From positions 160,001 to 224,000 of the forward strand of contig JBMOPW010000020.1 in NCBI GenBank assembly GCA_049322915.1: DNA of 64,000 bases, given 5' to 3'. Each line of letters starts with the position of its first letter. Position 1 is the stretch's first letter. This DNA is from Candidatus Zhuqueibacterota bacterium (GTDB lineage Bacteria; Zhuqueibacterota; Zhuqueibacteria; Thermofontimicrobiales; Thermofontimicrobiaceae). Shown here in pieces: positions 19,190-44,066 of the stretch. A program made the translations under genes and the position numbers. The notes beneath the pieces are model-generated. The model saw only the letters and a program-made list of their open reading frames with translations. It ran no database searches and had not been told where the DNA came from.

Positions 19190-19224
19190 TTCGTTAATCA
19201 TCTACTGAGTGAAAGGTATGATCC

Positions 19225-26555: not shown

Positions 26556-27227
26556 CTACTTTGATTTTTTATGAATCATACCATCGACCAGGTGAATGGT
26601 GCGGTGGCCGTATGCTGCCCACTTTTCGTTATGCGTCACCTGAACGATCGTGGCGCCCTGTTCGTTCAGCTTTTTCAACATGTCCATTATCTCTTTGCCC
26701 TGGGCTGAATTCAAATTGCCGGTTGGCTCGTCCGCCAGTATCACTTTCGGATCTGTGATGATGGCGCGGGCGATACCGACAATCTGTTGCTGCCCGCCGG
26801 AGAGTTGATTGGGGAATAAATCCTTTTTGGCGACAATCTGAAATCGGTCGAGCGCGTCTGCCACCAGTGCTTTTCGTTCTGAAGCCGGCACCTTTTTATA
26901 GAGCAAGGGCGTTTCCAGATTTTCGTACACAGTCAAATCATCGATCAAATGGTATGCCTGAAAAATGAAACCGATGTTCTGCTGGAACAGTTGTGTCCGT
27001 TCACGTTCCTTGAGTTGAAAAACAGATTGATCCCCGAAAAAATATTCGCCGTCCGATGGTTCGTCCAGCATGCCGATGATATGCATCAGAGTGGATTTAC
27101 CGGCGCCCGATGGGCCCATGATGGTGATGAATTCGCCAGGATTAATTTCCATCGAGATATCCTGAAGCACATACGTTTTCACAAATCGGTTGGAGTAGTA
27201 TTTGAAAATATCATGCAGTCTAATCAT
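26556..27227 (-). CDS. ABC transporter ATP-binding protein (LolD/MacB-type)
   Basis: [26 protein letters not shown] and VTH; GAAAGGA RBS before ATG 27227. Confidence 0.95.
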
Positions 27228-27573
27228 GGACATTCCTTTCAATGGTAATGTAAGCATTATTTTTAGTTGAAATGGATTCGGATCGCAACGGCAGTTGACG
27301 GAATGGTCGAAGTACCGAAAGCAACGGCAACGAAATCCGGCTTTTCAATGATGAGATTTCTCTCTGCTGAATTCCGTTGGGCAGTAAGTCCCCGTTCGGA
27401 GTCGGATGCCGTAAAGCTTGTTTCTTTCCCAGTGATGCAGCTTGTCTATTTTTACATGCGCAGCGACCTTCTGCTCTGGAGCAACGATTCAATCGGATAA
27501 AAGGTCTTGGAATTTCCAAACTGCAATAATTCATATCTCAAACTCTTCATCCGCCAAAGGACAGATTTCATCA

Positions 27574-29919
27574 CTACTCACAACGCAGTGATTCCACTGG
27601 ATTCGCCAGCGCCGCTTTAATCGACTGATAGCTCACTGTTAAAAATGCGATCATTAATGCCAGCAATGCTGCTAAAACAAACATCCACCAATTGATTGCA
27701 ATTCGATACGCAAAATCATGGAGCCATTGATTCATAAAATAATAAGCCACTGGCCAGGCGATGAGATTGGCGATCAACACCCATTTGGCGAATTCTCTGG
27801 ACAGCAAAACCACAATTCCTGCGATGGATGCGCCCAGCACCTTCCTTACTCCAATCTCTTTGGTGCGTTGTTCCGCCATGAATGACGCCAGACCGAATAG
27901 TCCAAGACATGAGAGAAAGATCGCCAGCAGGGCAAAGGTACGGACGATGTTGGTGGTTCGGTCGATCCAATGGTACATTTGATCGTACGCCTCGTCCAGA
28001 AAATGGTATTCAAACGGATAATTCGGATTAAATTTAGTGACCACGTCTTTGATAAAAGTAATCGTCTGCGGAACGTCTGGCGCATTAATTTTCAGGTACA
28101 CGTAGCGATAAGGGCGAATGTCTGGATTATTGAAAATCATGATCGGCCCGATCTCTCCCTCGTGAACAGGCTTGAAATGAAAATCTTTGACGATCCCGAT
28201 AATTTCAAGCGAAATATCACCACGATAGATTCGATTGCCCGCTGCGGTTTCCACATTCATCATCTGAGCCAAACGCTCGTTAATGACGACGACCGCCTGA
28301 TTTTTTGATTCCTCAGTAAAAAAGCGACCGTTTGCCATGTCGATCTGGAAGGTCTTCAGAAAATCGGCATCGACCTGAAAATAGGTGATCAGTGGATTTA
28401 CGTTGGGATCTTTTTCCTGCCATTGCCAGTCCTGACCGTTCCAATAAATTCCTGTAATCGCATCCGAAGCAAGCGAAATACTCTGGATCGCTGGATTTTT
28501 TAATAATTCATTTTTCACCGTTTCATTATTTTCTCCCAGATTTCCTTCGACAGGGAGGGACAGGATTTGTTCTTTGTTCAATCCCAGGTTTTTATTGCGC
28601 ATAAAATGGACTTGATTGTAAACCACCGTCGTGGCTATGATGAGGATGATCGACAGCGTAAACTGCGTGACGACCAGTATCTTTCTGAATGAACTACCTT
28701 TCGAACTCGAAAATCGTAAACCTGTGAAAATCTGGACAGGTTGAAACGATGAAAGGAACAGCGCTGGATAGCTTCCTGATATGATTCCTGTGACAATGGC
28801 AATCCCCATGATTCCCATTAAAGCGGAGAGATTTTTCAAATAATGCAGCTCTAATGGTCGTTGCGTCATTTGTCGAAAAACAGGCAAGAAAAGCTCAACC
28901 AAAAAGATGGCAAGCGCCAGTGAAATAATAGTCAGCAAAATCGATTCGCCAAAGAATTGCCGCACCAGATGTTTTCGCTGGGCGCCGACGACCTTGCGCA
29001 AGCCCACTTCCTTTATTCGTCTGGCTGAGCGTGCCGTGGTGAGATTCATGAAATTGATGCAGGCGATAACCAGAACAAACAGGGCAATCACCCCGAAAAT
29101 TTTGACCTGATCCAGCCGTCCCCATAGCTTCAAATAAATATCTTTGAACGGGTAGAGGAACGGTTCCAATATGGTATTGGGATCGGATTGACGAATGCGA
29201 TTGGCGATTTTTTGGTTGAATTCCTGGTATGAGACATTTTCCGCCAGTTGAACGTACGTGCGAAACGCCAGGTTGTACCAGGTATCGAGATAATTGGGTC
29301 GATATATTTCCCTGGTAAAATCAATTGGTATCCAGATCGCAAAATCTATGGTTGAATTATACGGAATATCTTCAATCACACCAACCACCTTAAACTCATA
29401 CCGATTCTCCAATGTAACGATCTTGCCGATGGGATTCTCATTGCCAAAATATTTCTGCGCCGTCTTTTCGGCCATGACCAAAACATGCGGATCTGAGAAG
29501 GCGTCCTTTGAATTTCCTTTCACAAAAGGAATAGTAAAAATCTCAAAAACCGTCGGCTCAGCCAATTGGACTTCATCCTTGAATTTTTTATTTTCGTATT
29601 GAATGAGAAATTCATGCAGTCCATTATTGATTAACGCTGAATTGACTACTTCGGGGAATTCGGTTTTCAGTGTTCGTCCCAGAATGGGCGGTGTGCCCTG
29701 GCCTGGCATCCTTTCAGCTCCATATTGCTCCCAGCAGCGCATCAGGTAAATCGAATCGAGGTTTTTGTGCATCGAATTGAAGCTCAATTCATATTGAATC
29801 CATAGCATGATCAGAATGCAGCACGCCATGCCGATTGCAAGACCCAGAATGTTGATGAAAGAATAAGCTTTGTGGCGTCGGATGTTTCGCAAAGCGATTT
29901 TTAAGTAGTTTTTAAACAT
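27574..29919 (-). CDS. MacB/FtsX-type ABC permease, array member A
   Basis: MFKNYLKIALRN...INFMNL..AR...EVGLRKVVGA...EIGVRKVLGAS...ANPVESLRCE. Confidence 0.95.
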   Translation of the reverse strand: MFKNYLKIALRNIRRHKAYSFINILGLAIGMACCILIMLWIQYELSFNSMHKNLDSIYLMRCWEQYGAERMPGQGTPPILGRTLKTEFPEVVNSALINNGLHEFLIQYENKKFKDEVQLAEPTVFEIFTIPFVKGNSKDAFSDPHVLVMAEKTAQKYFGNENPIGKIVTLENRYEFKVVGVIEDIPYNSTIDFAIWIPIDFTREIYRPNYLDTWYNLAFRTYVQLAENVSYQEFNQKIANRIRQSDPNTILEPFLYPFKDIYLKLWGRLDQVKIFGVIALFVLVIACINFMNLTTARSARRIKEVGLRKVVGAQRKHLVRQFFGESILLTIISLALAIFLVELFLPVFRQMTQRPLELHYLKNLSALMGIMGIAIVTGIISGSYPALFLSSFQPVQIFTGLRFSSSKGSSFRKILVVTQFTLSIILIIATTVVYNQVHFMRNKNLGLNKEQILSLPVEGNLGENNETVKNELLKNPAIQSISLASDAITGIYWNGQDWQWQEKDPNVNPLITYFQVDADFLKTFQIDMANGRFFTEESKNQAVVVINERLAQMMNVETAAGNRIYRGDISLEIIGIVKDFHFKPVHEGEIGPIMIFNNPDIRPYRYVYLKINAPDVPQTITFIKDVVTKFNPNYPFEYHFLDEAYDQMYHWIDRTTNIVRTFALLAIFLSCLGLFGLASFMAEQRTKEIGVRKVLGASIAGIVVLLSREFAKWVLIANLIAWPVAYYFMNQWLHDFAYRIAINWWMFVLAALLALMIAFLTVSYQSIKAALANPVESLRCE

Positions 29920-29939
29920 TTCATTTTCTCCATTTTCCT

Positions 29940-29991
29940 GCAGAGCGCATAGCCTAAATTTACGCTATGCGCTCTGCGCCATGCTCTATGC
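29940..29991. repeat. Junction heptamer hairpin between permeases B and A
   Basis: gcagagc-gcatagc / gctatgc-gctctgc-gccatgc-tctatgc; perfect 14-bp stem. Confidence 0.85.
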
Positions 29992-29995
29992 ATTT

Positions 29996-32389
29996 TTACT
30001 CATACCGCAGCGATTCCACTGGATTCGCCAATGTAACTTTCAATGTTTGTGATGTAACAGCAACCAGCGCTGTACCGAACGAAATGAAAATCACAAATAG
30101 ATATGTCCCGACGCCAATCCCTTGCATGTACAACAATCCAGTCTGCAATACTTGATTCCATCCAAAATGGATGATTGATAAGCCAATGACGTTGGCAAGG
30201 ACGACCAGCATGATAAATTCCCTGATCATGGTCCAGGTTACACGGATCATGGAAGCGCCAAGCACCTTGCGAATGCAGATTTCTTTTGTCCTCTGTTCTA
30301 CCAGGTAAGATACCAATCCCAGCAATCCCAGGCAGGAGAAAAATACGGCAACGAATCCAATCAAACCGAAAAAACCAGAGATTTTATTCACAAGTCCCAA
30401 AACATCCTGGAAATAATCATCAATGGATGTGCAGTCAAAAGGCAGATCAGGGAAAAAAACCAGCCATTGTTCTTTCAAGAGATGTTCGATGTCCTTGAAA
30501 TCATGGGCAGCAGAGTATTTGACCAGAAGATAATTTAAATCTTCAGGCGCTAAATATAAAGCGGCAGGAGGAATTTCAAAACCAATATCGGCAAAGAGAA
30601 AATCCTTTGCCACCCCGATTACCATGCCAGCCCTGTCCCCAATTATTATCTGTTTGCCAATCGGATCTTCAATATTCAATCTTTTGACAGCACTTTCATT
30701 CAGGATAATGCTGTTAACATCCTTGTTTTCCCTTGAAAAGCTTCTGCCGTTGGTCAGCTTCATCTCAAGGGCTTCGATAAAATTGTAGTCAACGCCGTAA
30801 GCCTCAATTGTTTTGGCGTCTTGCTCATTTTGCTCTGGCAGCCTGGCACGTTTTGGCGATGACCATATTAAAGGGATGTTAGCTGAAGCCGAAACAAGAT
30901 TTATCCCTGCCTGACGGGTAATTTCTGTTTTGAGAGCTTCGAGCCTGGGGCGAGATTCATCGGAAAGCTTCACCACAGCCAATCGCTCTCGATTGTAACC
31001 AAAGTCAGCTTTTAGCAGGTGATCCAGTTGGCCTTTTAATAAGCTTGCAAAGGCAATCAAGATGATCGACAAAGTAAATTGGGTGACGATTAAAATTTTG
31101 CTGCCACGTCTTTTTTTCTTGCCTGTCTGCAAGCTGCCTTTGAGCACTGCCTGGGGTTGAAATTTGGACAAAAAGAATGCTGGATAGGCGCCTGAAAATA
31201 TGCCCACTAAAAATGATGTGCCAACAAGATATTTCAACAGGAACGGATAGTTCCAGATCGAGTTGGAGACCTTCGGCGTGTACATCGTCGCTGAAAGCTT
31301 TCCGACATAAGCCGTGTAAATCGGTTCGATTAATTCATAAAGTATCAGGGCGACGGGTAACGCAATCAGCGATAACAAAACCGATTCGCTAATAAATTGA
31401 ATGATCAACTGCGAGCGTCGAGCGCCGATGACTTTTCGTACACCAACCTCTTGAACCCGCTGCATATATCTGGCAGTTGACAGGTTTATGAAATTAATGC
31501 TGACGATCAGCAGCAGGATGATTCCAATGCCCAAAATGATTACAATACCTGCCCGATTGCTGCTGCTCAGGAAAGAAGTAATATGTTCCGAATCCAGCCG
31601 AAAACTTAGAAAGGGGAAAAGATACATTTTCTTTGGTGATTCAGGCGTGTCTCCCAGGTATTTCTTTATCAGCGACTGGAATTTAGCCTCAAACTGTACC
31701 CGATCAAATTCTTCAGAGAGCAGCACAAAAGTAGCCAGTTGATTTTGTTTCCAGTCATCGGTTAAATGGTATAATGATCGGGCGGTCTCCATCGAGATCA
31801 GAAAATCAAATCTCATGGATGAAGTTCGGGGCACATTCTGAACAACTCCTGTAACAGTAACATCGCTATTTTTTTCAAGCGTCAGCACCTTTCCAATTGG
31901 ATCATGATTGCCGAAATATTTTTCGGCGAAGGCTTTGGTCAAAACAATCGAATTGGGTCTTGCCAGCGCTGTTTGTGGATTCCCCGCAATCATTTCAAAT
32001 GTGAAAAACGACAGAAAATTCGAGTCAACGAACAGGATGTTGCTTTCATAAAAAGCATCGGCTTCCCGCTTGATCGTCATTTTATTCACAGGATAAATTC
32101 TCAAGCCAGCTTCGATTCCAGGAAATTCATTTTGCAACGCATGGAGGAGTGGCATTGGCGTAAAGGCAGTGTGTTCCTCTTTTTTATTTTCCGATTGGAG
32201 CACCTGAACGACGCTGAAAATTCTCGTGGCATTTTTATGGAATTTATCCGCATTCAGTTTTACTCCCGCAGTTAAAGCAAAGATAGCAAATCCTGTCATC
32301 CCGACCGCCATTCCCAAAATGTTGATGAGAGAATAGGCTTTTTGTTTTTTCAGATTTCGTAATGCGACAAGTAAATAATTTTTGAACAT
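29996..32389 (-). CDS. MacB/FtsX-type ABC permease, array member B
   Basis: AAGGAG RBS, MFKNYLLVALRN...ANPVESLRYE; same architecture as member A. Confidence 0.95.
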   Translation of the reverse strand: MFKNYLLVALRNLKKQKAYSLINILGMAVGMTGFAIFALTAGVKLNADKFHKNATRIFSVVQVLQSENKKEEHTAFTPMPLLHALQNEFPGIEAGLRIYPVNKMTIKREADAFYESNILFVDSNFLSFFTFEMIAGNPQTALARPNSIVLTKAFAEKYFGNHDPIGKVLTLEKNSDVTVTGVVQNVPRTSSMRFDFLISMETARSLYHLTDDWKQNQLATFVLLSEEFDRVQFEAKFQSLIKKYLGDTPESPKKMYLFPFLSFRLDSEHITSFLSSSNRAGIVIILGIGIILLLIVSINFINLSTARYMQRVQEVGVRKVIGARRSQLIIQFISESVLLSLIALPVALILYELIEPIYTAYVGKLSATMYTPKVSNSIWNYPFLLKYLVGTSFLVGIFSGAYPAFFLSKFQPQAVLKGSLQTGKKKRRGSKILIVTQFTLSIILIAFASLLKGQLDHLLKADFGYNRERLAVVKLSDESRPRLEALKTEITRQAGINLVSASANIPLIWSSPKRARLPEQNEQDAKTIEAYGVDYNFIEALEMKLTNGRSFSRENKDVNSIILNESAVKRLNIEDPIGKQIIIGDRAGMVIGVAKDFLFADIGFEIPPAALYLAPEDLNYLLVKYSAAHDFKDIEHLLKEQWLVFFPDLPFDCTSIDDYFQDVLGLVNKISGFFGLIGFVAVFFSCLGLLGLVSYLVEQRTKEICIRKVLGASMIRVTWTMIREFIMLVVLANVIGLSIIHFGWNQVLQTGLLYMQGIGVGTYLFVIFISFGTALVAVTSQTLKVTLANPVESLRYE

Positions 32390-32406
32390 GATTTTCTCCT
32401 TCTCGT

Positions 32407-32563
32407 GCATAGCGCAGAGCGTTATACGTGGGACGAGAGACGGCAGACGTGAGACGAAAAAGTTGGCGTCTCACATTTCACGTTTGACGTTTCACGCAAA
32501 TTACGCTATGCGCTTATTCGTATCTCTAACTCTCCATCCGCCAAAGGACGGATTTCATCACTA
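32407..32563. repeat. Junction module between permeases C and B (nested heptamer hairpins + 47-nt terminal duplication)
   Basis: gcatagc-gcagagc-gttata-(cgtgaga-type)x4 ... (cgtttca-type)x4-gctatgc, then TTATTCGTATCTCTAACTCTCCATCCGCCAAAGGACGGATTTCATCACTA. Confidence 0.9.
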
Positions 32564-34987
32564 CTCACATCGCAAGGATTCAACTGGATTTGCCAGCGCT
32601 GCTTTAATCGATTGATAACTCACCGTAATCACTGCAATAATGAGCGCTAAAGTTCCTGCCAATAAAAATGTCCACCAGCTAATATGAATCCGATAAGCGA
32701 AGTTTTGTAACCATCGATTTACGGCAAAATAGGCAATTGGCCAGGCGATTATGTTTGAAATAAGAATCCATTTGACAAAATCTCGATTTAGCCACTGAAT
32801 GATATTTATAACCGAAGCACCAAGTACTTTACGGATGCCTATTTCTTTGGTGCGCTGCTTTGCAATAAATAGAGCCAAACCAAATAATCCAAGGCTGGCA
32901 ATAAACAATCCCATGATGGTAATAATACTTAATAATCGACTCACTTGCTCTTCAAACCGATATTGTCGATCGAAATCTTCATCGAGAAAAATTCCTTCAT
33001 ACGGGATCGATGGATGTAATTCACTCCATTTCGATTCGATGAATTTTAAAGTTTTATTTAAATTTTTAGTATTTAAAGACAATGTGATCACATTGAACAA
33101 AGATGGCTCATATTCCATAAAAAGGGGTTCTACAGTACTTTGCATTCCCTGATAATGAAAATTTTTTGTCACACCGACGATTTCCTTCTGGGTGAAGCCA
33201 CTATATATTTTCTTCCCAATCGCTTCTTCCGGTGAGCTCCAGCCGAGCAGTCCGACGGCAGCTTCATTAATAAGAAAGGCATTTTTCTCGTCATTTTGTT
33301 CTTTCAGGAAGGGGCGCCCAGCAACAAGCTCGATACCATATTCAGGGATAAAATCATGATCTACAGCCATATATTTCAAATCAAAAGGCTTTACCAAAAT
33401 ATCATTGCTAAAGCTTAATGAGTTATGAAGAACAGAACGCCCAGGGACGCTCGAAGATACGGTTGTACCAACAATCGCATGGTATTTATCGAATTCACTT
33501 TTCAACACTGTGTAATGGTCGCATACTTTTTTATTCATCCGAAACGGAATGACAAGTTTCTGCTCTTTGTTAAATCCCAACGATTGACTCTTCATAAAAT
33601 GAAGTTGGTTATAGATTGTGATCGTGCTTATGGTTAATAATATCGAAATCGCAAATTGTCCGATAACAAGTACCTTCAGGAGAAAAGTCCCACGTGAGTT
33701 GGTTACAGTTGATCCTTGAATCATAAGCGATGGTTTGAAGGCAGTCAAAATAAAAGCAGGATAACCGCCAGCAACAATACTGATAAATAATAAAAGACCC
33801 ACCAGCGCGAGAAGTACTGTCGGCTGAAAGAGTCCTCTGTGGGATAATTCAGTGCCAGCCATCTCGTTAAATAGGGGTAATAATATTTCTAACAACAGAA
33901 ATGCGAAAATCAATGCCAGGATGGTGATGATTATGGACTCACCCAAAAACTGCTTGATCAATTGAAATCGTTTGGCGCCGACAACCTTGCGCAAACCAAC
34001 TTCTTTGGTTCGATAAACCGACCGCACATTGGAAAGGTTTATGTAATTCATACAGCCAATTAATAAAATCAAAAATCCTATTACCGAATAAATGTATAGA
34101 TAAAGCTTGTTTCCTGGCGGTTCTATTTCATACCTCAGATTCGAATTGTAATGAATATCGAGTAACGGCTGCAAAAAATAGGTCCGTGTTTGTCCCCATA
34201 GGTCTAACTGTTTTTTGACATACTTGTAGGCAAGTCCACTGATTGACTCTTTGAATTCATTCACATTAGTGTTCGATCTGATCTTAACATACGTATACGC
34301 CGCACTGGAATGCCATTCTCGCAACAGAAAACCCCCTTCGTGTGTTTTCAAGGAGAGAAGTAAATCATATTTAAAATGAGAGTTTGAACGAGAGTTCTCG
34401 ATCACTCCAGTTACTATATAATCACAGACAGCAGGGAACGGCGCATAAAATCCACGAAATTCATAAATTGGATCTTTAATCTGGATTGTTTTACCGATTG
34501 GATTTTCATCTCCAAAATATTTCTTTGCCATATTTGTAGTCATCACGACCGTTCTTGGATTTTCTAATGCTGTTTCCGAATCACCTTGGATAAACGGCAT
34601 TGTAAATATTTTAAATATTTCCTGATCAACGTAGAACATTCGTTCCTCATAAAACGCCTTGTTTTCGTACCTGACAAATCCATCATTTAGTTGTAGGATT
34701 CTGGCTGCATGCTCAACCTGTGGGAAATCACTTTTCAGGACTGTCGCCACAACAGGACTGATTCGAGCAAATTTGAACTCGCCCAACGGAACCTTTCTAT
34801 ATTCGGCAATGCGATAAATTCTCACTGCGTCTTTATTGAATCGATCATACGACGATTCACTGGCGACATAAAGAAATATCACCATGCAGCAGGCGATTCC
34901 TATTGCCAGTCCTGCGATATTGATGGCAGAATATGTTTTATGCTTTTTAATATTTCGAAGAGTGATTTTCAAATAATTCTCTAGCAT
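32561..34987 (-). CDS. MacB/FtsX-type ABC permease, array member C (AT-rich)
   Basis: MLENYLKITLRN...ANPVESLRCE. Confidence 0.95.
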   Translation of the reverse strand: MLENYLKITLRNIKKHKTYSAINIAGLAIGIACCMVIFLYVASESSYDRFNKDAVRIYRIAEYRKVPLGEFKFARISPVVATVLKSDFPQVEHAARILQLNDGFVRYENKAFYEERMFYVDQEIFKIFTMPFIQGDSETALENPRTVVMTTNMAKKYFGDENPIGKTIQIKDPIYEFRGFYAPFPAVCDYIVTGVIENSRSNSHFKYDLLLSLKTHEGGFLLREWHSSAAYTYVKIRSNTNVNEFKESISGLAYKYVKKQLDLWGQTRTYFLQPLLDIHYNSNLRYEIEPPGNKLYLYIYSVIGFLILLIGCMNYINLSNVRSVYRTKEVGLRKVVGAKRFQLIKQFLGESIIITILALIFAFLLLEILLPLFNEMAGTELSHRGLFQPTVLLALVGLLLFISIVAGGYPAFILTAFKPSLMIQGSTVTNSRGTFLLKVLVIGQFAISILLTISTITIYNQLHFMKSQSLGFNKEQKLVIPFRMNKKVCDHYTVLKSEFDKYHAIVGTTVSSSVPGRSVLHNSLSFSNDILVKPFDLKYMAVDHDFIPEYGIELVAGRPFLKEQNDEKNAFLINEAAVGLLGWSSPEEAIGKKIYSGFTQKEIVGVTKNFHYQGMQSTVEPLFMEYEPSLFNVITLSLNTKNLNKTLKFIESKWSELHPSIPYEGIFLDEDFDRQYRFEEQVSRLLSIITIMGLFIASLGLFGLALFIAKQRTKEIGIRKVLGASVINIIQWLNRDFVKWILISNIIAWPIAYFAVNRWLQNFAYRIHISWWTFLLAGTLALIIAVITVSYQSIKAALANPVESLRCE

Positions 34988-35009
34988 GATTCATTTCCTT
35001 TGATTTTCC

Positions 35010-35076
35010 GCTTAGCGCAAAGAGCATGGCGCATCGCATCCTTTTCGCCATGCCCTTTGCTTTATACACCATACGC
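35010..35076. repeat. Junction heptamer hairpin between permeases D and C
   Basis: gcttagc-gcaaaga-gcatggc-gcatcgc / gccatgc-cctttgc-tttatac-accatac. Confidence 0.75.
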
Positions 35077-37476
35077 TTATTCGTATCTCAAACTCTTCAC
35101 TGGATTCGCCAGTGCCGCTTTAATCGAATGATAGCTGACTGTCAACAAAGCAATGAGCAAAGTTGCCGATCCAGCCACCACAAATGTCCACCATTCCAGG
35201 TTGATCCGATACGTGAAATTTTGCAGCCATTGCGTCAGGCAGTAATAGGCAACGGGCCAGGCGATGATGTTGGCAATCAACACCCATCTGGTGAAATTCC
35301 AGGTTAACGATGATACGATACCTGGGACGGATGCGCCGAGCACTTTTCGGATGCCGATCTCTTTGGTTCGCCGCTCGGCGGTAAAAGTGGCTAAACCGAA
35401 TATGCCGAGGCATGCGATAAAAATAGCCAATATGTTTGAATACATCAGAATCTGTCCCAGCTTCTGTTCCGATTGATACATCTGATTGAATTGATCATCG
35501 AGAAAAAAATGCTGAAAAGGATATCGAACCTTGAAGCGATTATACAGGCTCTCTATTTTTGCCAGTGTCTCATGGAAATTGCCTGGGATCATTCGGATCT
35601 GAATCCAATATGAATTGGGTCGGCATCGAATAATGACGGGTTTGATATTGAAATGTAACGGACGGGCATGGAAATCTTTCACCACGCCGATAATATTGTA
35701 TCTGGCATCCTGAGGGCCGCTCCATACCTGGGGTACCTGTTTGCCAATCGGATTGGCCCAGCCTATTTGTTTCACAAAGGTTTCATTCACGATCAGGGCT
35801 GTAGCTGAATCGCTACCAAACGCTTTTGAAAAATTCCGACCCTGCACCATACGCATCTTAAACAGATCGATGAAATTATAATCGACTTCGAGAAGCTGGT
35901 AATGCACCAGTTTATTTTCCCCATTGTCTTTTTGGAATTCGATCCCAGTTGCCCAATTAATGTTAGTGGGTAGCTCGCTTGAAGTCGTGACATCGACGAC
36001 TTTGGGAATTTGCAGCAGATCATTTTTGAATGCTTCAAAATTATTGGTGATTTCCGAATCCGCCTGTCGCAGCACTAAAATCTGTTCCCTCCTGAATCCC
36101 AGGTCTTTGTGTTTGATATAACCAATCTGCCGGTATATTACGAGTGAAGCAATCATCAAAACGATTGCGATGCTGAATTGGAACAAAACCAGAAAATTCC
36201 TGAGATTCATGCCTTTTTTTTGATCCGTATTTTTTGACCTTAAAATTATCACGGGCTTCATCGAAGACAGAACGATTGAAGGATAAATACCAGAGATCAG
36301 ACCCGTGGCGATGACAACGGCAATTAATCCGAGAATCTCAGTTTTATTTAGAAAGAAACTCCAGTCAATCGTTCGCTGAATGAATTGATTGAACACTGGC
36401 AGCAGCATGGTTACCAGCGTAATTGCAGCAACAAATGCCAGTACTGACATGAATAGCGATTCTCCTGTAAACTGCCCGAACAATTGGTGACGCATTGAGC
36501 CGACCACTTTTCGAACCCCGATTTCTTTGGCTCGCTTCGAGGCATTTGCTGTCGACAAATTCACGGCATTGATGCAGGCGATCAATAGGACAAATATGGC
36601 AACGACGGTGAATAGTCGAATCAAATAGATGTCCGTGGGCGCGCCGAGTTCATAGCGATAGCCTGATGTGAGATGAACCTGGTGCAGCGGCTGCAGAAAA
36701 TAGTTGAAATTCAATCGGAATTCCCAATCACCATATTTTGTTTTGGTAAAGTCATTGAGTTTTTTTTCAAACGCCCTGGCATCGCATCCAGGCTGCAATT
36801 TAATGAAGGAGTAGTAATTATCCCAATTCCAGGCATTCAATCGCCTGTCACGATCATCAGGCTGAAACTGACTTTCGAAGGGGAGAATCCAATCAAATTG
36901 AATGTTGGAATTTTCAGGCGCATTCTCGGCAATGCCAGCGACCGTAAAATCACCGAGCGAACATGTCAGCGTTTTTCCTAATGGATCGTCGTTGCCGAAA
37001 AGTTTTTGCACCAGCCGTTGGCTGATAATGATGTTTTGCAGGTTATCCAGAATTTTCTCTTTGTCACCTTTGATCAGCTTGAAAGAAAAAATATTGAAAA
37101 AATTTTTATCAGCCAATACGCCCGCTTCAAAGAAATGCATTTCATCTCGGGACAGCAATAGCTGATTAAAGGAGCTGAATCGGGTGGCAGATTCAACTTC
37201 AGGGAACGCTTCCATCAGCGCCGCAGCCAGTGGCGCAGGTGTAATTGCCAGCATGTCCTCCGTCGTTCCAAATTTTTCACCTGGCAATTGAAAAATAATG
37301 CGAAAAATGCGATTGGAGTGCTGGTGGAAATTATCGTAGCTAAGTTCGTATTGCACGAACAGCATAATGAGCATAAAGCAGGTCATTCCAATCACCAGTC
37401 CTGCAATATTAATGAACGAATATCCCTTATTTCTCTGGATATTTCGAAGGATTAATTTCAGGTAGTTATTGAACAT
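35077..37476 (-). CDS. MacB/FtsX-type ABC permease, array member D
   Basis: MFNNYLKLILRN...ANPVKSLRYE. Confidence 0.95.
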   Translation of the reverse strand: MFNNYLKLILRNIQRNKGYSFINIAGLVIGMTCFMLIMLFVQYELSYDNFHQHSNRIFRIIFQLPGEKFGTTEDMLAITPAPLAAALMEAFPEVESATRFSSFNQLLLSRDEMHFFEAGVLADKNFFNIFSFKLIKGDKEKILDNLQNIIISQRLVQKLFGNDDPLGKTLTCSLGDFTVAGIAENAPENSNIQFDWILPFESQFQPDDRDRRLNAWNWDNYYSFIKLQPGCDARAFEKKLNDFTKTKYGDWEFRLNFNYFLQPLHQVHLTSGYRYELGAPTDIYLIRLFTVVAIFVLLIACINAVNLSTANASKRAKEIGVRKVVGSMRHQLFGQFTGESLFMSVLAFVAAITLVTMLLPVFNQFIQRTIDWSFFLNKTEILGLIAVVIATGLISGIYPSIVLSSMKPVIILRSKNTDQKKGMNLRNFLVLFQFSIAIVLMIASLVIYRQIGYIKHKDLGFRREQILVLRQADSEITNNFEAFKNDLLQIPKVVDVTTSSELPTNINWATGIEFQKDNGENKLVHYQLLEVDYNFIDLFKMRMVQGRNFSKAFGSDSATALIVNETFVKQIGWANPIGKQVPQVWSGPQDARYNIIGVVKDFHARPLHFNIKPVIIRCRPNSYWIQIRMIPGNFHETLAKIESLYNRFKVRYPFQHFFLDDQFNQMYQSEQKLGQILMYSNILAIFIACLGIFGLATFTAERRTKEIGIRKVLGASVPGIVSSLTWNFTRWVLIANIIAWPVAYYCLTQWLQNFTYRINLEWWTFVVAGSATLLIALLTVSYHSIKAALANPVKSLRYE

Positions 37477-37495
37477 TTTTTTTCTCCGCTTTTTT

Positions 37496-37652
37496 GCATA
37501 TCGCAGAGCGTTATACGTGAGACGAAAGACGAAAGAATTTAGCGTCTCGCATCTCTCGTTTGACGTTTCACAAGTTTCACGCTATGCCCTTTGCACCCCA
37601 CGCTATTCGTACCTCCAACTTTCCATCCGCCAAAGGACGGATTTCATCACTA
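37496..37652. repeat. Junction module between permeases E and D
   Basis: Near-copy of 32407-32563. Confidence 0.9.
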
Positions 37653-40013
37653 CTCACAATGCAAGGATTCAACTGGATTTGTCACTGCCGCTTTGATTGC
37701 TTGATAACTCACCGTAAAAATTGAGATCACCAGCACCACCATCGCTGACAGCACAAAAGGCTCCCATCCCAGATTGATTCGATAGGAAAAGCCTTGCAGC
37801 CATTGGCTCGCTGCCCAATACGCCACAGGCCAGGAGATAATGTTGGCAATAAGTACCCACAGGGTAAATTCTCCGGACAGCAGCAGAACGATGCCCGCAA
37901 CCTTTGCGCCCAATACTTTGCGGATGCCGATCTCTTTGGTGCGTCGTCCCGCCATGAACGACGCCAGTCCGAACAGCCCCAGGCAAGCGATGAAGATAGC
38001 CAGCCCTGAGAAATAGCCAAAAATTTTTCCGATCTTACGTTCGGTCGTGTATAAATTTTCAATTGATTCGTCAAGGAATTGGTATCGAAATGGATGTCCG
38101 GGAACGAACTTTTTCCACTTTTGCTCTAAATAACTGACGATCCCTTGTTCGCTGCCACTGTATTTAACGCAGACGAAGAAACCGTTGCGCAAGCTAATAA
38201 CTTTTGGCTGGATGAAATTCCGCAGCGAGCCGCCATGATAGTCCTTCACCACACCGATGATCGTGCCCGTTTTCCCATTGATCGTCAGGCGCTTGCCGAT
38301 CGGCTCATTCAAATCCATTCTTTTGATGGCCGATTCATTCAGAACAAAATTGGCGTCATCGCTGATGAACTCCCGTGAATAAAATCGACCTGCTGCCATT
38401 TTTAAACCAAAGGTTTTTAAAAAATCATAGTCGCCCAAATCGGAAAAAAGCATGATTTCTCTGGTCGGATCTTTGCCTTCCCACTGGACTTGTGTCGTTC
38501 CGCCAAAACCAGGCCCAGGTGGAAATGCCTGGCTCACGCTGAGAATATTTGGATTTTGGAGCAACTCATTTTTGGCGGCTTCGAAATTCATGCCGTATTG
38601 ACCATACGAGGCAAATGAAATGATATTATTCTGGTCAAAGCCCAAATCTTTATTCTGAATAAAATGAAGCTGCCAATAAATAACCGCAGTCAGGATGATC
38701 AGTGTGATGGTGATCGAGAACTGGCTGACCACGAGCACCTTCCGCAGGGCGCCGCCTTTGCCAGCGCTGAATTGAGCCATGGCTCTAAAAACGCCCGCAG
38801 GCTGAAATGATGATAAATAGAGAGCAGGGTAACTGCCTGAAACAATACCTGTTAATATGACAATCCCTAACAAGACGAACAATGAACTCAAATTTTTCGT
38901 CGGGTCGAGCGAAAGCTGCTTGCTGGCAAGCGAGTTAAAAGTCGGCAGTAGAATTTCCACAAGAATGATGCTTACAAATAGCGCTAAAAATGATAACAGT
39001 AAGGTTTCACCCAGAAACTGGATGATGATATCCCGCCGCTGGGCGCCAGTCACTTTGCGGATGCCGATTTCTTTCGCTCGTGCGCCGGAGCGGGCGGTCG
39101 AAAGGTTGGTGAAATTGATGCAGGCTAATGCCAGGATCAAGATGGCGACGATAGAAAAAATGTAAATATACGTGATATTACCTGGATTGGGGTAGACAAT
39201 GTTCCAGCTATTCAGGTGCATCGAATGTAAATGAACTGATTTTAACGGCTGGAGGTCGAGGGTGATTTTGGAATCGGGAATATTTTTGATGACCATGCCC
39301 GCCATTTTTTGTTTGAGATCATTCAGATCGATATTTTTTTTGGTCAGGATATAGGTCGTAAACTGAGTGTATGTCCAGCTATCCAGCTTGGATTCCCGCC
39401 ATTCGGTCATGTTGATGACAGGGAAGATGTAGTCGAACTGGAGATGGGAATTGTGCGGAATATCTTTCATGACTCCTGTGACCTTCAAATCCGTATCCGA
39501 CATCTGAACGATTTTCCCCATTGGCTCGTCATCGCCAAATATTTTTTTCGCTAACCTTTCGGTGAGCACAATTGAATAGCGATCGTGTAAAGCCGTTTTG
39601 GGATCGCCTTTGAGAAATGGAAATTGAAATATTTCAAAGAAAGAAGGATCGGCGCAGGCCAGCTTTTCGGTTATAAAAATTTTGTCGCCCAGATGAAGAT
39701 ACCAGTTCGACCAGCCTGATTGGACTCGAGTGAAATTTTCAACTTCGGGATATTCTTCAACCAGTGTAGGACCAATGAGTGAAGGTGATCCAACCGAGCG
39801 AATTAAATTGCCGCCCGACCTGTCTTCGGAAATGACCCGAAAAATGTGATCGTTATTTTTGTGGAATCGATCCCAACTCAATTCATCTTGCACCCACAGC
39901 AGGATGAGCGTACAGACGGCCATGCCAATAGCCAGTCCGATGACATTCAAGAACGAATAGCCTTTATAGCGTTTGATGTTTCGCAGTGCAATTGTCAAAT
40001 AATTTTTGAACAT
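37650..40013 (-). CDS. MacB/FtsX-type ABC permease, array member E
   Basis: AAGGAG RBS, MFKNYLTIALRN...TNPVESLHCE. Confidence 0.95.
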   Translation of the reverse strand: MFKNYLTIALRNIKRYKGYSFLNVIGLAIGMAVCTLILLWVQDELSWDRFHKNNDHIFRVISEDRSGGNLIRSVGSPSLIGPTLVEEYPEVENFTRVQSGWSNWYLHLGDKIFITEKLACADPSFFEIFQFPFLKGDPKTALHDRYSIVLTERLAKKIFGDDEPMGKIVQMSDTDLKVTGVMKDIPHNSHLQFDYIFPVINMTEWRESKLDSWTYTQFTTYILTKKNIDLNDLKQKMAGMVIKNIPDSKITLDLQPLKSVHLHSMHLNSWNIVYPNPGNITYIYIFSIVAILILALACINFTNLSTARSGARAKEIGIRKVTGAQRRDIIIQFLGETLLLSFLALFVSIILVEILLPTFNSLASKQLSLDPTKNLSSLFVLLGIVILTGIVSGSYPALYLSSFQPAGVFRAMAQFSAGKGGALRKVLVVSQFSITITLIILTAVIYWQLHFIQNKDLGFDQNNIISFASYGQYGMNFEAAKNELLQNPNILSVSQAFPPGPGFGGTTQVQWEGKDPTREIMLFSDLGDYDFLKTFGLKMAAGRFYSREFISDDANFVLNESAIKRMDLNEPIGKRLTINGKTGTIIGVVKDYHGGSLRNFIQPKVISLRNGFFVCVKYSGSEQGIVSYLEQKWKKFVPGHPFRYQFLDESIENLYTTERKIGKIFGYFSGLAIFIACLGLFGLASFMAGRRTKEIGIRKVLGAKVAGIVLLLSGEFTLWVLIANIISWPVAYWAASQWLQGFSYRINLGWEPFVLSAMVVLVISIFTVSYQAIKAAVTNPVESLHCE

Positions 40014-40030
40014 GATTTTCTCCTTAGCTT

Positions 40031-40213
40031 GCGTGGGGGAACGCATGGCGCAGAGCGTTATACGTGAGACGTGAGACGAAAGACGCGAGACGAAAGAATT
40101 TAGCGTCGCACATCTCTCCTTTGACGTTTAACAAGATTCACGCAATGCCCTTTGCACCCCCCTCTATTCGTACTTCCAACTCTCCATCCGCCAAAGGACG
40201 GATTTCATCACTA
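40031..40213. repeat. Junction module between permeases F and E
   Basis: Near-copy of 32407-32563 and 37496-37652, with five cgtgaga-type units in the left inner arm. Confidence 0.9.
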
Positions 40214-42601
40214 CTCACAACGCAAGGATTCAACTGGATTTGCCAGGGCAGCGCGGATTGTCTGGAAACCGGATGTCGCCAGGGCGAATGCAAGTTCAAA
40301 TGCCACCGCCAGCATGAACAGCCACCAGTTGACCTGAGTTCGATAGGCAAAATGATTCAACCAGTAATGCATGAGGCAGAATGAGAAAGGAATAGCAAGC
40401 GCGCTGGCGCCTAAAATCCAGATGATGAACTGGCGGGAAATGAGAAACGTGATGCCGAATGCGCTTGCGCCCATCACTTTTCGGATGCCGATTTCTTTCG
40501 TACGGTTTTTTGTCACGAACGAGCTGAGACCGTAAAGCCCCAGACAGGAGACGAACAGAGCCAATCCGGTAAAAATGGATAAGAGTTCCCCCGACTTTTC
40601 TTCGACGCGGTAGAGGCGCGAATAGACATCCTCTAAGAAGCGATGATTTAAGGCATACCCGGGCAGGACGCTGGTCCAAACCTCTCTCACGTGCGAAATT
40701 GTCTCCGGTATTTTGTCAGGATTCAGTCTCATTGCAACTACAATGGTCTTCCGGGTATCGATCAAAATGAGCGCGGGATTGATTTTCTTGTGAAACGATT
40801 GAATGTGAAAATCCCGCACAATGCCGATCACACTGACAGCATCGCTCCGGCCCGGAATGTGAAGCAGAGCCCCGACAGGATGAGCCAGTCCCAATGCGCG
40901 CACAGCCGATTCATTCAAAATGACGCTGCCCATAGCATCCGTGGAGATTTCGCGCGAGAAATTCCTTCCCTCAATGAACGCCAGCTTCATGGTTTCGGCA
41001 AATCCAAAGTCAGCGGGCAGCGCTTGCAGATTCACCGAGTTTTCGGCCGGGCTGCCGGCTTTTGTGACGGAGATGTTGAAGCGGCTGTTGATGCCGGGCA
41101 AGGTGTACGCGCTGGAAACACCGAGTACATTCGGATTTTTCAATAACTCGTCGCGAAGCACTGAGTACTTTCCTGCTGCGGCGTCGTCATTGAGCGGGAA
41201 ATTGAGGAGCAGCACATTGTTCTTGTCGAATCCAAGTCCGGCGTTCTTCATATAGTTCAGTTGCTTGTAAATAATCGCCGTCCCCAGGATGAGAGTCAGG
41301 GTCAACGCAAACTGCAGGACGACGATGAATTTTCGAAGATTGAGCTTATGAGTGAGGCCCAGTCGCCGTTTCTTCAGAATGTCCACGGGCCGGAATCTGG
41401 ATAAAAACAGCGCCGGGTACCCGCCGGCAATGAGACTCACTGTGACGATCAGTCCGATGATGAGGATGCTGAATTGCAGCTTGAGCGTCGGTCCCATGTA
41501 AAAATCGGTTCCCACGAAGTCGTAAAATAGTGGCCGCAGTAATTCGAAAATGACAAATCCAACGGCGATGGCGAAGAGCGTAATGAGGAACGATTCGATC
41601 AAAAGCTGATGAATGAGCTGCGGGCGGCTTGCGCCGACGACTTTGCGAATGCCGATTTCCCGGGCGCGGTTCAAATAGCGCGACGTGGATAGGTTGATAA
41701 AATTGAAGCAGGCAATGATGAGAACGAAGAAAGCAGCGGCTAAAAATATTGTCACATACATTTTGTTACCTTTGGGCCCGAGGTCGTAGTTGGAGCGCAT
41801 ATCCCAGTGAATTTCCGAAAGCGGCAGCGGTATGAATTTCATGCGCAAAGCGAACCAGTCATTGGTATTCTCCTTCAGCATGTCCGCCAGCCTGCTCATG
41901 ACCGGCCCAATGGTTGCTCTCTCTTTCAACAGTAAGTAGGTGAAATCATCGCCCCATTGATCCCAGGGCGCAGCACTGACTTTGCCGCTCGCCGCAAATG
42001 TGGCGTAGGAAATGATGAACTGGCAGTTGAGATGGGTGTTGCGCGGGAAATCCCGCATGACGCCGGTGATTTTTAAAGGGGAGTCCTGATAGACTAACGT
42101 GCGGCCAACAGGATTTTCGGCGCCGAAATATTTCCGAGCCTGCGATTCGGTCATGACCAGGGAAAACGGTTCGGAGAGGGCATTTGCCGTATCGCCCTGG
42201 ATGAGATCAAACGTGAAGATGTCGAAAATCCCTGGCTCAGCGAGAAAGACATAGTCCTCGCGGATGGATTCGTCATTCGGCCTCGTGAAAATAGCGTCGT
42301 AATCTCGGCGAATGCGAATGGCGCGTTCGACTTCAGGCGACTGCGTATTCAGAGCCGGGGCGAGTGCGGGCATGGAGCCGGCGAAAATCATTTTGCTCTC
42401 CGGCGTGCCCCACTCCAGCATGATGCGATAGATGCGGCTTTTTTTCTCATGGAAATTCTCAAAGCTGGTCTCGTACATGACGTAGGTCAGCATCACCATG
42501 CAAACAGCCAGCCCAACGGCGAGACCGAGGATATTGATTGCTGAGAATCCCTTGTTCCGGCCGACATTGCGGAACGCGATTTTGATATAGTTCTTTAACA
42601 T
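40211..42601 (-). CDS. MacB/FtsX-type ABC permease, array member F (GC-rich)
   Basis: MLKNYIKIAFRN...ANPVESLRCE. Confidence 0.95.
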   Translation of the reverse strand: MLKNYIKIAFRNVGRNKGFSAINILGLAVGLAVCMVMLTYVMYETSFENFHEKKSRIYRIMLEWGTPESKMIFAGSMPALAPALNTQSPEVERAIRIRRDYDAIFTRPNDESIREDYVFLAEPGIFDIFTFDLIQGDTANALSEPFSLVMTESQARKYFGAENPVGRTLVYQDSPLKITGVMRDFPRNTHLNCQFIISYATFAASGKVSAAPWDQWGDDFTYLLLKERATIGPVMSRLADMLKENTNDWFALRMKFIPLPLSEIHWDMRSNYDLGPKGNKMYVTIFLAAAFFVLIIACFNFINLSTSRYLNRAREIGIRKVVGASRPQLIHQLLIESFLITLFAIAVGFVIFELLRPLFYDFVGTDFYMGPTLKLQFSILIIGLIVTVSLIAGGYPALFLSRFRPVDILKKRRLGLTHKLNLRKFIVVLQFALTLTLILGTAIIYKQLNYMKNAGLGFDKNNVLLLNFPLNDDAAAGKYSVLRDELLKNPNVLGVSSAYTLPGINSRFNISVTKAGSPAENSVNLQALPADFGFAETMKLAFIEGRNFSREISTDAMGSVILNESAVRALGLAHPVGALLHIPGRSDAVSVIGIVRDFHIQSFHKKINPALILIDTRKTIVVAMRLNPDKIPETISHVREVWTSVLPGYALNHRFLEDVYSRLYRVEEKSGELLSIFTGLALFVSCLGLYGLSSFVTKNRTKEIGIRKVMGASAFGITFLISRQFIIWILGASALAIPFSFCLMHYWLNHFAYRTQVNWWLFMLAVAFELAFALATSGFQTIRAALANPVESLRCE

Positions 42602-42673
42602 GGCGTTCTCCTGCCTGATCGATTAAAAGAGAGAGCCTTCAGTCCGTGACTCACGGAGGCTCGACTGAAGGGG

Positions 42674-42865
42674 TTGGAAATCCCGGGCAGTCAGTTTTTT
42701 TCAAGCGTAATTTTATTAATGAAAATAGCTCACCGGGAGAAAAAGCGCTCGCTGCATCGGACACCAAAAAGGCAGTGATTGACCCATGTGAATGAGCGAT
42801 TTCACTTGCCCGGCACATCATTCCTGATCGCGCGGCTGCAACGCCCGGAACGCCCGGATTTCCAA
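42674..42865. mobile_element. ~190-bp element with 14-15-bp terminal inverted repeats
   Basis: TTGGAAATCCCGGGC (42674-42688) / GCCCGGATTTCCAA (42852-42865). Confidence 0.45.
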
Positions 42866-43555
42866 TTACACCCGGAATCTCTCCTTGACATTTTCCGTGA
42901 CCACCTGGCCGTCGAACAGATGAATGATGCGATGGCAATATTCAGCATAGGCCGGCGAGTGGGTGACCATGATGATCGTCGTGCCGTTCTCGTGCAGGTC
43001 GGACAACAGTTTCATCACCTCATCCCCGTGAGCTGAATCCAGGTTGCCAGTCGGCTCGTCCGCCAAAATGAGCCGGGGTTGAGCGACTACAGCTCGTCCC
43101 ACGGCGACGCGCTGCTGCTGCCCGCCGGAGAGCTGCTGTGGGAAATGATTTTTCCGATGCATCATCTGCATCTGCTCCATCACTTCATTGACGCGCGTTT
43201 TTCGTTCGGCTGACGAATAGCCCAGATACAGCAGCGGAAGTTCAATGTTTTCGAACACCGTCAATTCATCGATTAAATTAAAACTCTGAAAGACAAATCC
43301 GATATTGGCTTTTCGCAGATTCGCCCGCTGCCGTTCAGAATACCGGGATACCTCCTGGTCCAGAAAGTAGTACTCGCCGTCGTTGGGATTGTCCAGCAGC
43401 CCCAGCAGGTTGAGCAGCGTGGACTTCCCGCATCCGGACGGTCCCATGATGGCCACAAACTCTCCCTGCGTGATTTCGATGTTCACGTTATTCAGAGCAG
43501 TCGTTTCCACTTCCTCGGTCATGTAGATTTTTTTGAGATTTTTGGTTTTTATCAT
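42866..43555 (-). CDS. ABC transporter ATP-binding protein (LolD/MacB-type)
   Basis: [29 protein letters not shown] and VTH. Confidence 0.96.
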   Translation of the reverse strand: MIKTKNLKKIYMTEEVETTALNNVNIEITQGEFVAIMGPSGCGKSTLLNLLGLLDNPNDGEYYFLDQEVSRYSERQRANLRKANIGFVFQSFNLIDELTVFENIELPLLYLGYSSAERKTRVNEVMEQMQMMHRKNHFPQQLSGGQQQRVAVGRAVVAQPRLILADEPTGNLDSAHGDEVMKLLSDLHENGTTIIMVTHSPAYAEYCHRIIHLFDGQVVTENVKERFRV

Positions 43556-43621
43556 TGGTTTGTTCTCCGACTTATTGATCCTTCATTATTCTCCTGTATG
43601 GATAGAGATGTTTTAGGTTTT

Positions 43622-44066
43622 AAGATGCGTTCAGCGTTCAGCGTTCAGCGGTCAGCCTTCTGCCTTTAGCTTTTGTATCAATCCAGCCAACATTTTTTTT
43701 ACTTCTTCAATTTCATTCAACAATTTTATATACGTGTTTTCATCGAGATAATGTAAATCGTAGGCTAAAAGTGTCTGGTATTCAAGTTCACTCGCTGATC
43801 CCATTGCAATTTGCAGGAAGCGAGCAAAATCAAGGTCGCTGTTTCGTCCACAACCTTCAGCAATATTTGATGGGATAGAAATACTGGATCTACGGATTTG
43901 GCTCGTCAATCCATAGATTTCCTCTTTTGGAAATGCACGAGTGTTTTTATAAATTTGCAAGGTTAGCTCATGGCTTTTCTGCCATACATTCAACTTCCTA
44001 AAATCTTTCATTTTAATTCCTCCTGTTTTTATCTGATTGCTAATTGCTGAAAGCTGATAGCTATTT
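43622..44066. mobile_element. Four-helix-bundle gene unit bounded by inverted heptamer-repeat arms
   Basis: Left arm (gttcagc)x3-ggtcagc-cttctgc-ctttagc (43629-43670); right arm tctgatt-gctaatt-gctgaaa-gctgata-gctattt (44032-44066). Confidence 0.7.
43652..44011 (-). CDS. Four helix bundle protein (23S rRNA IVS protein / Avd-like family)
   Basis: FRKLNVWQKS, FPKEEIYGLTSQIRRS..SIPSNIAEG.GR and FLQIAMGSASE; GGAGG RBS; AT-rich relative to its neighbours. Confidence 0.95.
   Translation of the reverse strand: MKDFRKLNVWQKSHELTLQIYKNTRAFPKEEIYGLTSQIRRSSISIPSNIAEGCGRNSDLDFARFLQIAMGSASELEYQTLLAYDLHYLDENTYIKLLNEIEEVKKMLAGLIQKLKAEG

Follow-up and report, generated by a model that had tools for sequence, protein, structure and literature searches.

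In a 64,000-nucleotide stretch of DNA from a Candidatus Zhuqueibacterota bacterium (contig JBMOPW010000020.1, positions 160,001 to 224,000; hereafter the window), each of the five junctions between six tandem permease genes (P6 to P1) carries a hairpin whose arms are built from inverted 7-nt units (heptamers). These genes belong to one long minus-strand operon, in which they are preceded, in order, by a periplasmic adaptor gene, a gene of the four-helix-bundle (4HB) family, an ABC ATPase gene and a gap of 264 nt. Based on the comparison with 4HB genes from other genomes, we regard it as probable, with real room for doubt, that the five hairpins (J1 to J5) are gene-less members of a family of heptamer-armed elements lodged at gene junctions and similar to the intervening sequences (IVSs) of 23S rRNA, the 4HB gene of the operon being the gene-bearing member. 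The gene-less 4HB reading is supported by a comparison of sequences from outside the window. The 4HB (or S23p) family is very common and has no known function; the window, together with 99 4HB genes from elsewhere, links intergenic heptamers to this family in a quantitative manner and, taken with the filled, gene-less and empty states of orthologous junctions, this link turns two unknowns into one testable object.

The elements of the window with heptamer arms are the following:

29940-29991: J1, between P2 and P1; short heptamer hairpin with a 19-bp stem (one mismatch) and two extra right-arm units
32407-32515: J2; compound hairpin with outer units GCATAGC/GCAGAGC
35010-35066: J3; short hairpin with a 15-bp stem and a 14-nt loop, showing the weakest 7-nt periodicity of the five
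37496-37610: J4; compound hairpin with three inner left units and degenerate arms
40031-40170: J5; compound hairpin with five inner left units, an outer GGGGG/CCCCC clamp and degenerate arms
43622-44063, minus strand: gene-bearing element, a 4HB gene between heptamer arms, located between the adaptor and ATPase genes
3647-3800 (right arm about 3770-3800): gene-less heptamer-arm element with CNNTCAG-type units; the arms pair, z -1.5
19062-19190: gene-less heptamer-arm element with CNNTCAG-type units; -42.1 kcal/mol, z -3.6

Direct reading of the sequence upheld the layout proposed by a preliminary description of this DNA, namely inverted arms of 7-nt units at all five permease junctions, short-loop hairpins at 29940 (J1) and 35010 (J3), and a second unit type nested in J2 (32407), J4 (37496) and J5 (40031), where four, three and five left units, respectively, follow GTTATAC. 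The units of J1 are GCAGAGC and GCATAGC on the left and, after the loop, GCTATGC, GCTCTGC, GCCATGC and TCTATGC (arms 29940-29958 / 29959-29977, 95% complementary by inverted-repeat search), and those of J3 are GCTTAGC, GCAAAGA, GCATGGC and GCATCGC, followed by the 14-nt loop and by GCCATGC and CCTTTGC (arms 35017-35031 / 35046-35060, 93% complementary). J2, J4 and J5 all have the same order, with outer units of the GCATAGC/GCAGAGC type, GTTATAC, units of the GTGAGAC/GAAAGAC type, the opposite TCTCACG-type units and, finally, the outer GCTATGC arm. In J2, whose inner left units are GTGGGAC, GAGAGAC, GGCAGAC and GTGAGAC, complementarity reaches 87% in the outer arms (32411-32425 / 32500-32514) and 70% in the inner ones (32427-32456 / 32467-32496). 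The left arm of this hairpin keeps one 7-nt register throughout (32407, 32414, 32421, 32428 and onward) and the right arm has a phase offset of 2 nt; given the single left-arm register, what had been described as two families is therefore one compound arm. The junction stems are located between the stop codon and the next Shine-Dalgarno sequence, which they leave uncovered.

The 7-nt periodicity is specific, lag 7 being the only lag among 4 to 12 with at least 17/21 self-matches in the window (27 positions versus 0), and the tandem-repeat finder TRF gives period-7 rows at 29963, 32426, 32467, 37520, 40062 and 43627. Runs of at least three tandem 7-nt units in intergenic DNA (an STRR-like criterion) are found in the window; J3 misses the period-7 threshold of 16/21 and is absent from the lag-7 arrays. 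The arms of J4 and J5, with a complementarity of only about 70-75%, were not recovered by the inverted-repeat search (seed 6), and when the uniform inverted-heptamer criterion used on other genomes is applied to the five junctions, J1 alone scores. Folding of the junctions as RNA and as single-stranded DNA (ssDNA), which had been proposed as a check, gave a graded answer, strong for J1 and J3, moderate for J2 and barely distinguishable from shuffled sequence for J4 and J5. On the mRNA-sense strand, the RNA z values versus shuffles are -6.5 (J1), -3.6 (J2), -5.0 (J3), -1.3 (J4) and -2.7 (J5), with energies of -33.4 kcal/mol for J1 and -31.7 kcal/mol for J3, in a junction range of -31 to -50 kcal/mol; the antisense values are -5.1 (J2), -3.3 (J4) and -1.7 (J5). 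The sense RNA folds better than the antisense in four of the five junctions, J2 being the reverse, and the arms of J4 pair in the minimum free energy (MFE) RNA structure despite the weak z. As ssDNA, the values are -6.2 for J1, about -3 for J2, about -4 for J3, -0.6/-1.6 for J4 and -0.8/-0.4 for J5. The short hairpins are thus sharp, and the long ones (J2, J4 and J5) are real in layout but decayed.

As for the gene-bearing element, the earlier observation that its arms follow the same grammar with other units was borne out, these units being CNNTYAG / CTGAMCG. The 4HB gene (43652-44011, 119 aa) matches TIGR02436 (E 3.6e-44; 149 bits, the cut-off being 24). The left arm of the element, (CNNTYAG)4 at 44033-44063, starts on the adaptor gene's stop codon (TAG) and is followed by a Shine-Dalgarno sequence, the open reading frame (ORF) and the right arm, (CTGAMCG)4 at 43622-43667. 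The arms (43631-43655 / 44033-44057) are 76% complementary and, in the MFE structure of the sense transcript, they pair and enclose the ORF. The two further gene-less elements of the window have a common 5' leader, CTAAATTGAGCGAT; one of them (3647-3800) lies between co-directional genes and the other (19062-19190) precedes an L-arabinose isomerase gene in a space between divergent genes. Elements of this kind lodge exactly in gene junctions, often extending from the upstream stop codon to just before the next start.

The junctions differ in age from the genes around them. Identity among J2, J4 and J5 is 70-100% over the junction together with the final ~60 nt of the gene upstream of it, compared with about 40-65% in the coding flanks; since the junctions are far more alike than these flanks, the junction sequence is much younger than the gene duplications. 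The right arms of all five have a common core, ACGC[TA]ATGC[GC]C, the gap that separates J4 from J2 and J5 measures 14 nt (exactly two units), and what flanks the inner hairpin of J2 agrees in sequence with the loop of J1. The junction sequence has probably been re-inserted or copied between junctions, and its unit number drifts in steps of seven. In the process that we propose, J2, J4 and J5 would have spread recently among the paralogous junctions, by re-insertion or by gene conversion. The nested second unit type is accounted for by the presence of one hairpin in the loop of another.

In order to profile other genomes, the window 4HB protein was used as a query, which yielded 80 loci (1.27 Mb) from more than ten phyla, including Anaerolineales, Poribacteria, Planctomycetota, Bacteroidota, Acidobacteriota, Verrucomicrobiota and Myxococcota; the best match in genome contigs is 66% identical. 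These loci contain 86 4HB genes, 85 of them with both flanks, and an array was called when a period of 7 reached at least 16/21 self-matches at no more than 150 nt from the gene. By this measure, 51 of the 85 genes have a period-7 array on either side (47 have one upstream, 34 downstream and 30 both), against 6 of 1103 random windows of the same loci, and the same test at lags 5, 6, 8, 9 and 10 gave 0-1 genes. Over the whole 1.27 Mb, there are 224 period-7 arrays versus 0-34 at other lags. The arrays hold 121 different consensus unit types, and therefore there is no universal unit sequence; their median length is 5.3 units, a value that says little because the detection threshold cuts lengths off at 4 units. 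Inverted heptamer arms form 101 elements, 53 of which enclose a 4HB gene, 40 are gene-less (loop up to 60 nt in 25, and 61-250 nt in 15) and 8 are of another kind. In the flanks more than 1.5 kb away from an ascertained 4HB gene (958 kb), gene-less elements outnumber gene-bearing ones by 24 to 5. Where the neighbours are co-directional (n=57), the 4HB gene is on their strand in 51 cases and on the opposite strand in 6.

The units of the permease junctions have close counterparts in these loci. Units with at most one mismatch to the outer type adjoin 4HB genes in loci L058, L065, L016 and L046, units near the inner type do so in L070 and L077, and in L001 the second of the 4HB genes is surrounded by (TTAGACG)n arms; L002, L046 and L022 provide further cases of compound arms made of two unit types. 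In an independent sample, 13 of 14 4HB genes from cyanobacterial plasmids (the 14 were taken from 20 matching records, all of them cyanobacterial) adjoin period-7 arrays; Nostoc sp. PCC 7120 is among the cyanobacteria with 4HB genes on plasmids. Their sites include cas6/cas4, cmr2/cmr3, two genes for ribonucleotide reductase (RNR) subunits and secretion genes; both cas6|cas4 sites have heptamer arrays and the cmr2|cmr3 site has inverted arms of period 8. In one Pseudanabaena plasmid (L081, 1390-1970), the 4HB gene between cas6 and cas4 has about 14 AAAAGCT units upstream and AAAAGCC units downstream, a direct orientation that is an exception to the inverted layout. The preliminary description had offered empty four-helix-bundle elements as one of three explanations, and the inverted heptamer arrays that flank 4HB genes across phyla, in lineages other than that of the window, speak in its favor.

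Orthologous junctions, for which a search for 4HB genes had been recommended, could be compared in another lineage, and they favor the same explanation. A cluster of about 15 kb is syntenic in four Poribacteria species, its flanking genes having 70-87% nucleotide identity, and 4HB cassettes occupy five different junctions in it (A to E). At junction B, two genomes have a 4HB gene with heptamer arms and the other two have overlapping flanking genes (ATGCTTGA) and no element; the insert opens with AATAG, by which the upstream gene acquires a new stop codon. At junction A, a single genome has the 4HB gene, and the remaining three have gene-less heptamer hairpins, which are of three different unit types and one of which is only 45 nt long. 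At junction C there are one 4HB gene, one gene-less hairpin and two cases with nearly no spacer, and D and E show patterns similar to those of A to C. Closely related 4HB genes lie between unrelated heptamer units. The motif AGCGGAACG occurs in eight copies in two of these loci, three of them inside or at most 60 nt from a 4HB gene and five away from any.

Some further details of the two loci (L016 and L022) can be added here. The motif AGCGGAACG is located just inside the right arm (for instance at 3153, 8518, 9972, 5044 and 261 of L022), the left arms have small GC-rich hairpins with a GCTACGC loop, and both features are found in gene-bearing and gene-less elements alike. At 12206-12673 of L016, where L022 has a 4HB gene, the place is taken by a 155-aa ORF unrelated to it, which has internal sequence repeats and lacks heptamer arrays.

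If the five hairpins do belong to an IVS-like family, the junction elements would be selfish or at least fast-turning-over DNA, and not devices for this operon. The stems of J1, J3, J2 and the 4HB element might then act on the polycistronic mRNA as intervening sequences do in rRNA, being RNase III substrates or barriers to 3' exonucleases that would split the transcript of about 19 kb into segments; such cutting or blocking is inferred from the likeness to known IVSs. Several observations weigh against this picture. In the survey, 34 of the 85 4HB genes have no array at the threshold used, and all sampled loci were picked for carrying a 4HB gene. No 4HB gene in the 80 loci is associated with the exact junction units, the link consisting of a consensus with at most one mismatch in few arrays. 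At the clean junction B no target-site duplication was seen, and the contrast among the four genomes may reflect either gain or precise loss. Within the window, the five junction elements are homologous to each other, and gene conversion without transposition could explain their spread; for J4 and J5, folding is hardly or not at all better than that of shuffles, whether as RNA or as ssDNA; and no transposase, integrase, reverse transcriptase or RAYT domain was found in the 38 ORFs scanned (12 with NCBIfam and 27 with Pfam, one in both). Three results from the arms point the same way. Among the mismatches of the 53 gene-oriented elements, sense G:U (123) does not exceed A:C (135; p = 0.49), which bears on the RNA part of the picture; the mismatches look random (258 of the transition type versus 458 others); and shuffling the order of the units barely lowers the complementarity of the arms (median z 1.2-1.6), in a comparison with little power given the similarity of the units. 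Since the order of the units barely matters, the arms may be arrays of like units and not strict stems and, since selection for an RNA stem should favor G:U and does not, the inverted layout looks like a property of a DNA element. Any RNA role thus looks like a consequence, with no visible selective force.

These results also determine how the other explanations should be judged. That the hairpins are adaptive signals for RNA processing or stability, setting the relative amounts of the six permeases as REP/BIME elements do in some E. coli operons, seems to us rather unlikely. Such signals would fit the presence of a hairpin in 5/5 internal junctions, the placing of the stems between the stop codon and an uncovered Shine-Dalgarno sequence, and the better folding of the sense strand in four of the five junctions (-31 to -50 kcal/mol); they would also fit the lack of terminator-like sites in the junctions (none of the 23 such sites in 27000-45500 lies in one, and no U run follows the stems). 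Against them stand the lack of a sense-strand G:U excess in the family, the better antisense folding of J2 and the z of -1.3 of J4, the occurrence of a like element outside operon junctions (19062-19190, between divergent genes), and the orthologous junctions of other lineages, which swap unit types and gain or lose the element. An Rfam search of 27000-45500 gave two matches below threshold (E 0.13 and 0.34), both away from the heptamer hairpins, and no rRNA. An RNA effect of the kind put forward in the preliminary description is possible as a consequence of the elements. We hold it unlikely, too, that local replication slippage with palindrome correction, inherited with the tandem duplications and unrelated to 4HB genes or mobility, produced the arms. 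Unit numbers do differ by multiples of 7, the right-arm core is common to all five junctions, and heptamers are reported, in the available portion of bioRxiv 10.1101/309039, as the commonest intergenic periodic repeat in prokaryotes; but the similarity of the junctions far exceeds that of the genes, whose proteins share 32-45% identity with P1, arrays are tied to 4HB genes (51/85 versus 6/1103), and a junction with otherwise overlapping flanking genes shows clean presence or absence.

A protein-binding role has also to be considered, in which the arrays would be double-stranded operators for a regulator or for the 4HB protein itself and the hairpin would be incidental. Inverted sets of five heptamers in Geobacter are annotated as predicted global-regulator sites (PMC2700814, in the text accessible to us), and arm complementarity is hardly altered when the unit order is shuffled; additionally, the median array of 5.3 units could be set beside the Xanthomonas 4HB protein, a pentamer according to a citation in the consulted part of PMC4990558, but that median is uninformative, the threshold cutting array length at 4 units. 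With 121 consensus units in 224 arrays, and with related 4HB genes between unrelated units so that they have no common operator sequence, we judge this role improbable. The recombination sites suggested by the preliminary description, in which the hairpins would be attC-like ssDNA sites of an integron-like cassette array, did not survive the comparison and are in our view highly improbable. An imperfect hairpin is indeed present at every gene boundary of the permease array, and attC boxes follow the consensus RYYYAAC ... GTTRRRY, the second of which resembles the GTTATAC of J2, J4 and J5. The right arms, however, contain no RYYYAAC box inverse to GTTATAC, none of the 38 ORFs has an integrase (IntI) domain, J4 and J5, unlike J1 to J3 (z -3 to -6), do not fold better than shuffles as ssDNA, the supposed cassettes are paralogs within one transporter operon, and in related elements the gene sits inside the hairpin loop and not beside it.

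Returning to the IVS-like family, the closest known systems are the IVSs of 23S rRNA in Leptospira and Coxiella. As far as the portion of PMC4990558 at hand goes, the Coxiella IVS contains an S23p ORF within a terminal stem of 28 bp and is an in vitro substrate of RNase III. Upstream of the ORF there are three GACAGAT heptamers in tandem, in a number that depends on the strain, and the 5' cut falls at the first of them. In the published descriptions available to us, these IVSs resemble the window elements in the ORF family (TIGR02436 / PF05635), in the terminal inverted repeats that enclose the ORF as a long stem, in the variable number of tandem heptamers upstream of it, in the existence of ORF-less forms, and in a sporadic distribution that looks like horizontal transfer. 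They differ in their location, the window elements being found in junctions of protein-coding operons and not in helix 25 or 45, and in their arms, which in the window are long heptamer arrays on both sides, with five of the six operon copies lacking an ORF; moreover, RNase III cleavage is demonstrated for the IVS and inferred for the window elements. The Coxiella IVS is the sole printed link between heptamers and a 4HB ORF that was found by full-text search, a search that covers subscription journals only in small part.

Intergenic heptamer repeats have been described on several occasions. The consulted excerpts mention convergent inverted pairs of GGGAATC in Xanthomonas (70-75 pairs; PMC4692102), inverted sets of MTYCTGA in Geobacter (PMC2700814), and TAACTGA in Beggiatoaceae, with further cases in cyanobacteria and Bacteroidetes (PMC4679880); in these same excerpts, neither 4HB genes nor intervening sequences of rRNA are brought into connection with the repeats. 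Tandem heptamers were the most abundant of the intergenic periodic repeats in a survey that covered 7,006 prokaryotic genomes and, as far as its text was available, reported "no clear clue" to what they do (bioRxiv 10.1101/309039). The window arms are like these repeats (cyanobacterial STRR, Xanthomonas, Geobacter and Beggiatoaceae) in being tandem 7-nt units, often in convergent inverted pairs, whose length and sequence vary quickly between relatives, and unlike them in the sequences of the units. Compared with REP/REPIN/BIME elements, there is a likeness in that both are short, palindromic, non-coding, multi-copy elements of intergenic spaces, including operon junctions. REP elements can stabilise upstream mRNA, and a RAYT transposase whose gene lies elsewhere is responsible for their movement. 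Their palindromes do not consist of heptamer arrays, REPINs are not known to contain a cargo gene, and the window ORFs scanned include no RAYT. The gene-bearing form itself encodes no recognisable transposase. Integron attC sites, finally, have in common with the junctions the imperfect hairpins at gene boundaries and are set apart by several features, the window having no integrase in the ORFs scanned, no R and L boxes, a gene that lies inside the hairpin and genes that are paralogs of one operon.

A broader proposal can be put forward only tentatively. The heptamer hairpins, with or without the 4HB gene, might constitute one widespread selfish cassette that colonises operon junctions (cas, RNR, conjugation and transporter operons, among others) in many phyla, the 23S IVS being a special case that happened to be noticed first; a large share of the unexplained intergenic heptamers of prokaryotes would be its arms or relics; the 4HB protein, a relative of Avd (an accessory protein of diversity-generating retroelements), would act on its own arms, as RNA or ssDNA, for spread or for excision from the transcript. 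This possibility touches the 4HB genes located between cas genes, which were taken as a CRISPR association (PMC3936711) and are called "associated" with CRISPR-Cas loci in the accessible text of PMC10910872: the reported associations may involve junction-hopping passengers and not Cas accessory factors.

The genes of the operon, all on the minus strand, are as follows:

27574-42601: permease array P1-P6; TIGR03434, E 4.9e-73 to 4.2e-91, all below the curated cut-off
27574-29919: permease P1
29996-32389: permease P2; start reset to an ATG with Shine-Dalgarno sequence and MFKNY consensus
32561-34987: permease P3
35077-37476: permease P4
37650-40013: permease P5; start reset to an ATG with Shine-Dalgarno sequence and MFKNY consensus
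40211-42601: permease P6
42866-43555: ABC ATPase gene; best match a DarD-like ATPase model, E 3e-82, below the curated cut-off
44061-45311: periplasmic adaptor (membrane fusion protein) gene; TIGR01730, E 8.8e-35, above the cut-off

The six tandem paralogs, which run from 42601 down to 27574, are duplicated permeases of about 800 aa of the ADOP/MacB type, and P1 has 32-45% amino acid identity with the other five. For P2 and P5, the longest ORFs begin at 32410 and 40046, ATG codons within the hairpins; the real starts are 32389 and 40013, because a Shine-Dalgarno sequence and the conserved MFKNY N-terminus are found there. ATG codons in such hairpins can therefore misdirect ORF callers, as happened at these two genes, which is of relevance for annotation.

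Four of the six permease genes are followed by a 36-nt module (27547-27582, 32534-32569, 37623-37658 and 40184-40219), with three exact copies and one with two mismatches, which contains a small hairpin (ATCCG...CGGAT). The last codons of the permease gene (..SLRCE*) come from this module, and just behind it there is a relic of an older gene end, like the ..SLRYE* end of P4; the module has the appearance of a conversion tract or a small insertion by which the permease 3' end was replaced. An unassigned 104-aa ORF (27220-27534), beginning in the remnant of the old P1 end, lies between P1 and a second ABC ATPase gene (26556-27257) downstream of the array. The gap between the first ATPase gene and the first permease gene (42602-42865, 264 nt) has no heptamer hairpin; its inverted repeat is another one, of 9 bp, CCTTCAGTC ... 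GACTGAAGG, and the gap may hold an internal promoter or a processing site. The region 45566-48353, transcribed divergently from the operon, encodes a histidine kinase and a response-regulator-type sigma-54 activator, which may control the operon. Elsewhere in the window, as hints of an origin in the FCB group, there are two GWxTD-domain proteins (2-463 and 2207-3628) and a subtilase (6089-9568) with five PKD domains, a C-terminal sorting domain of the type IX secretion system (T9SS) and a 255-nt tandem repeat (8051-8894).

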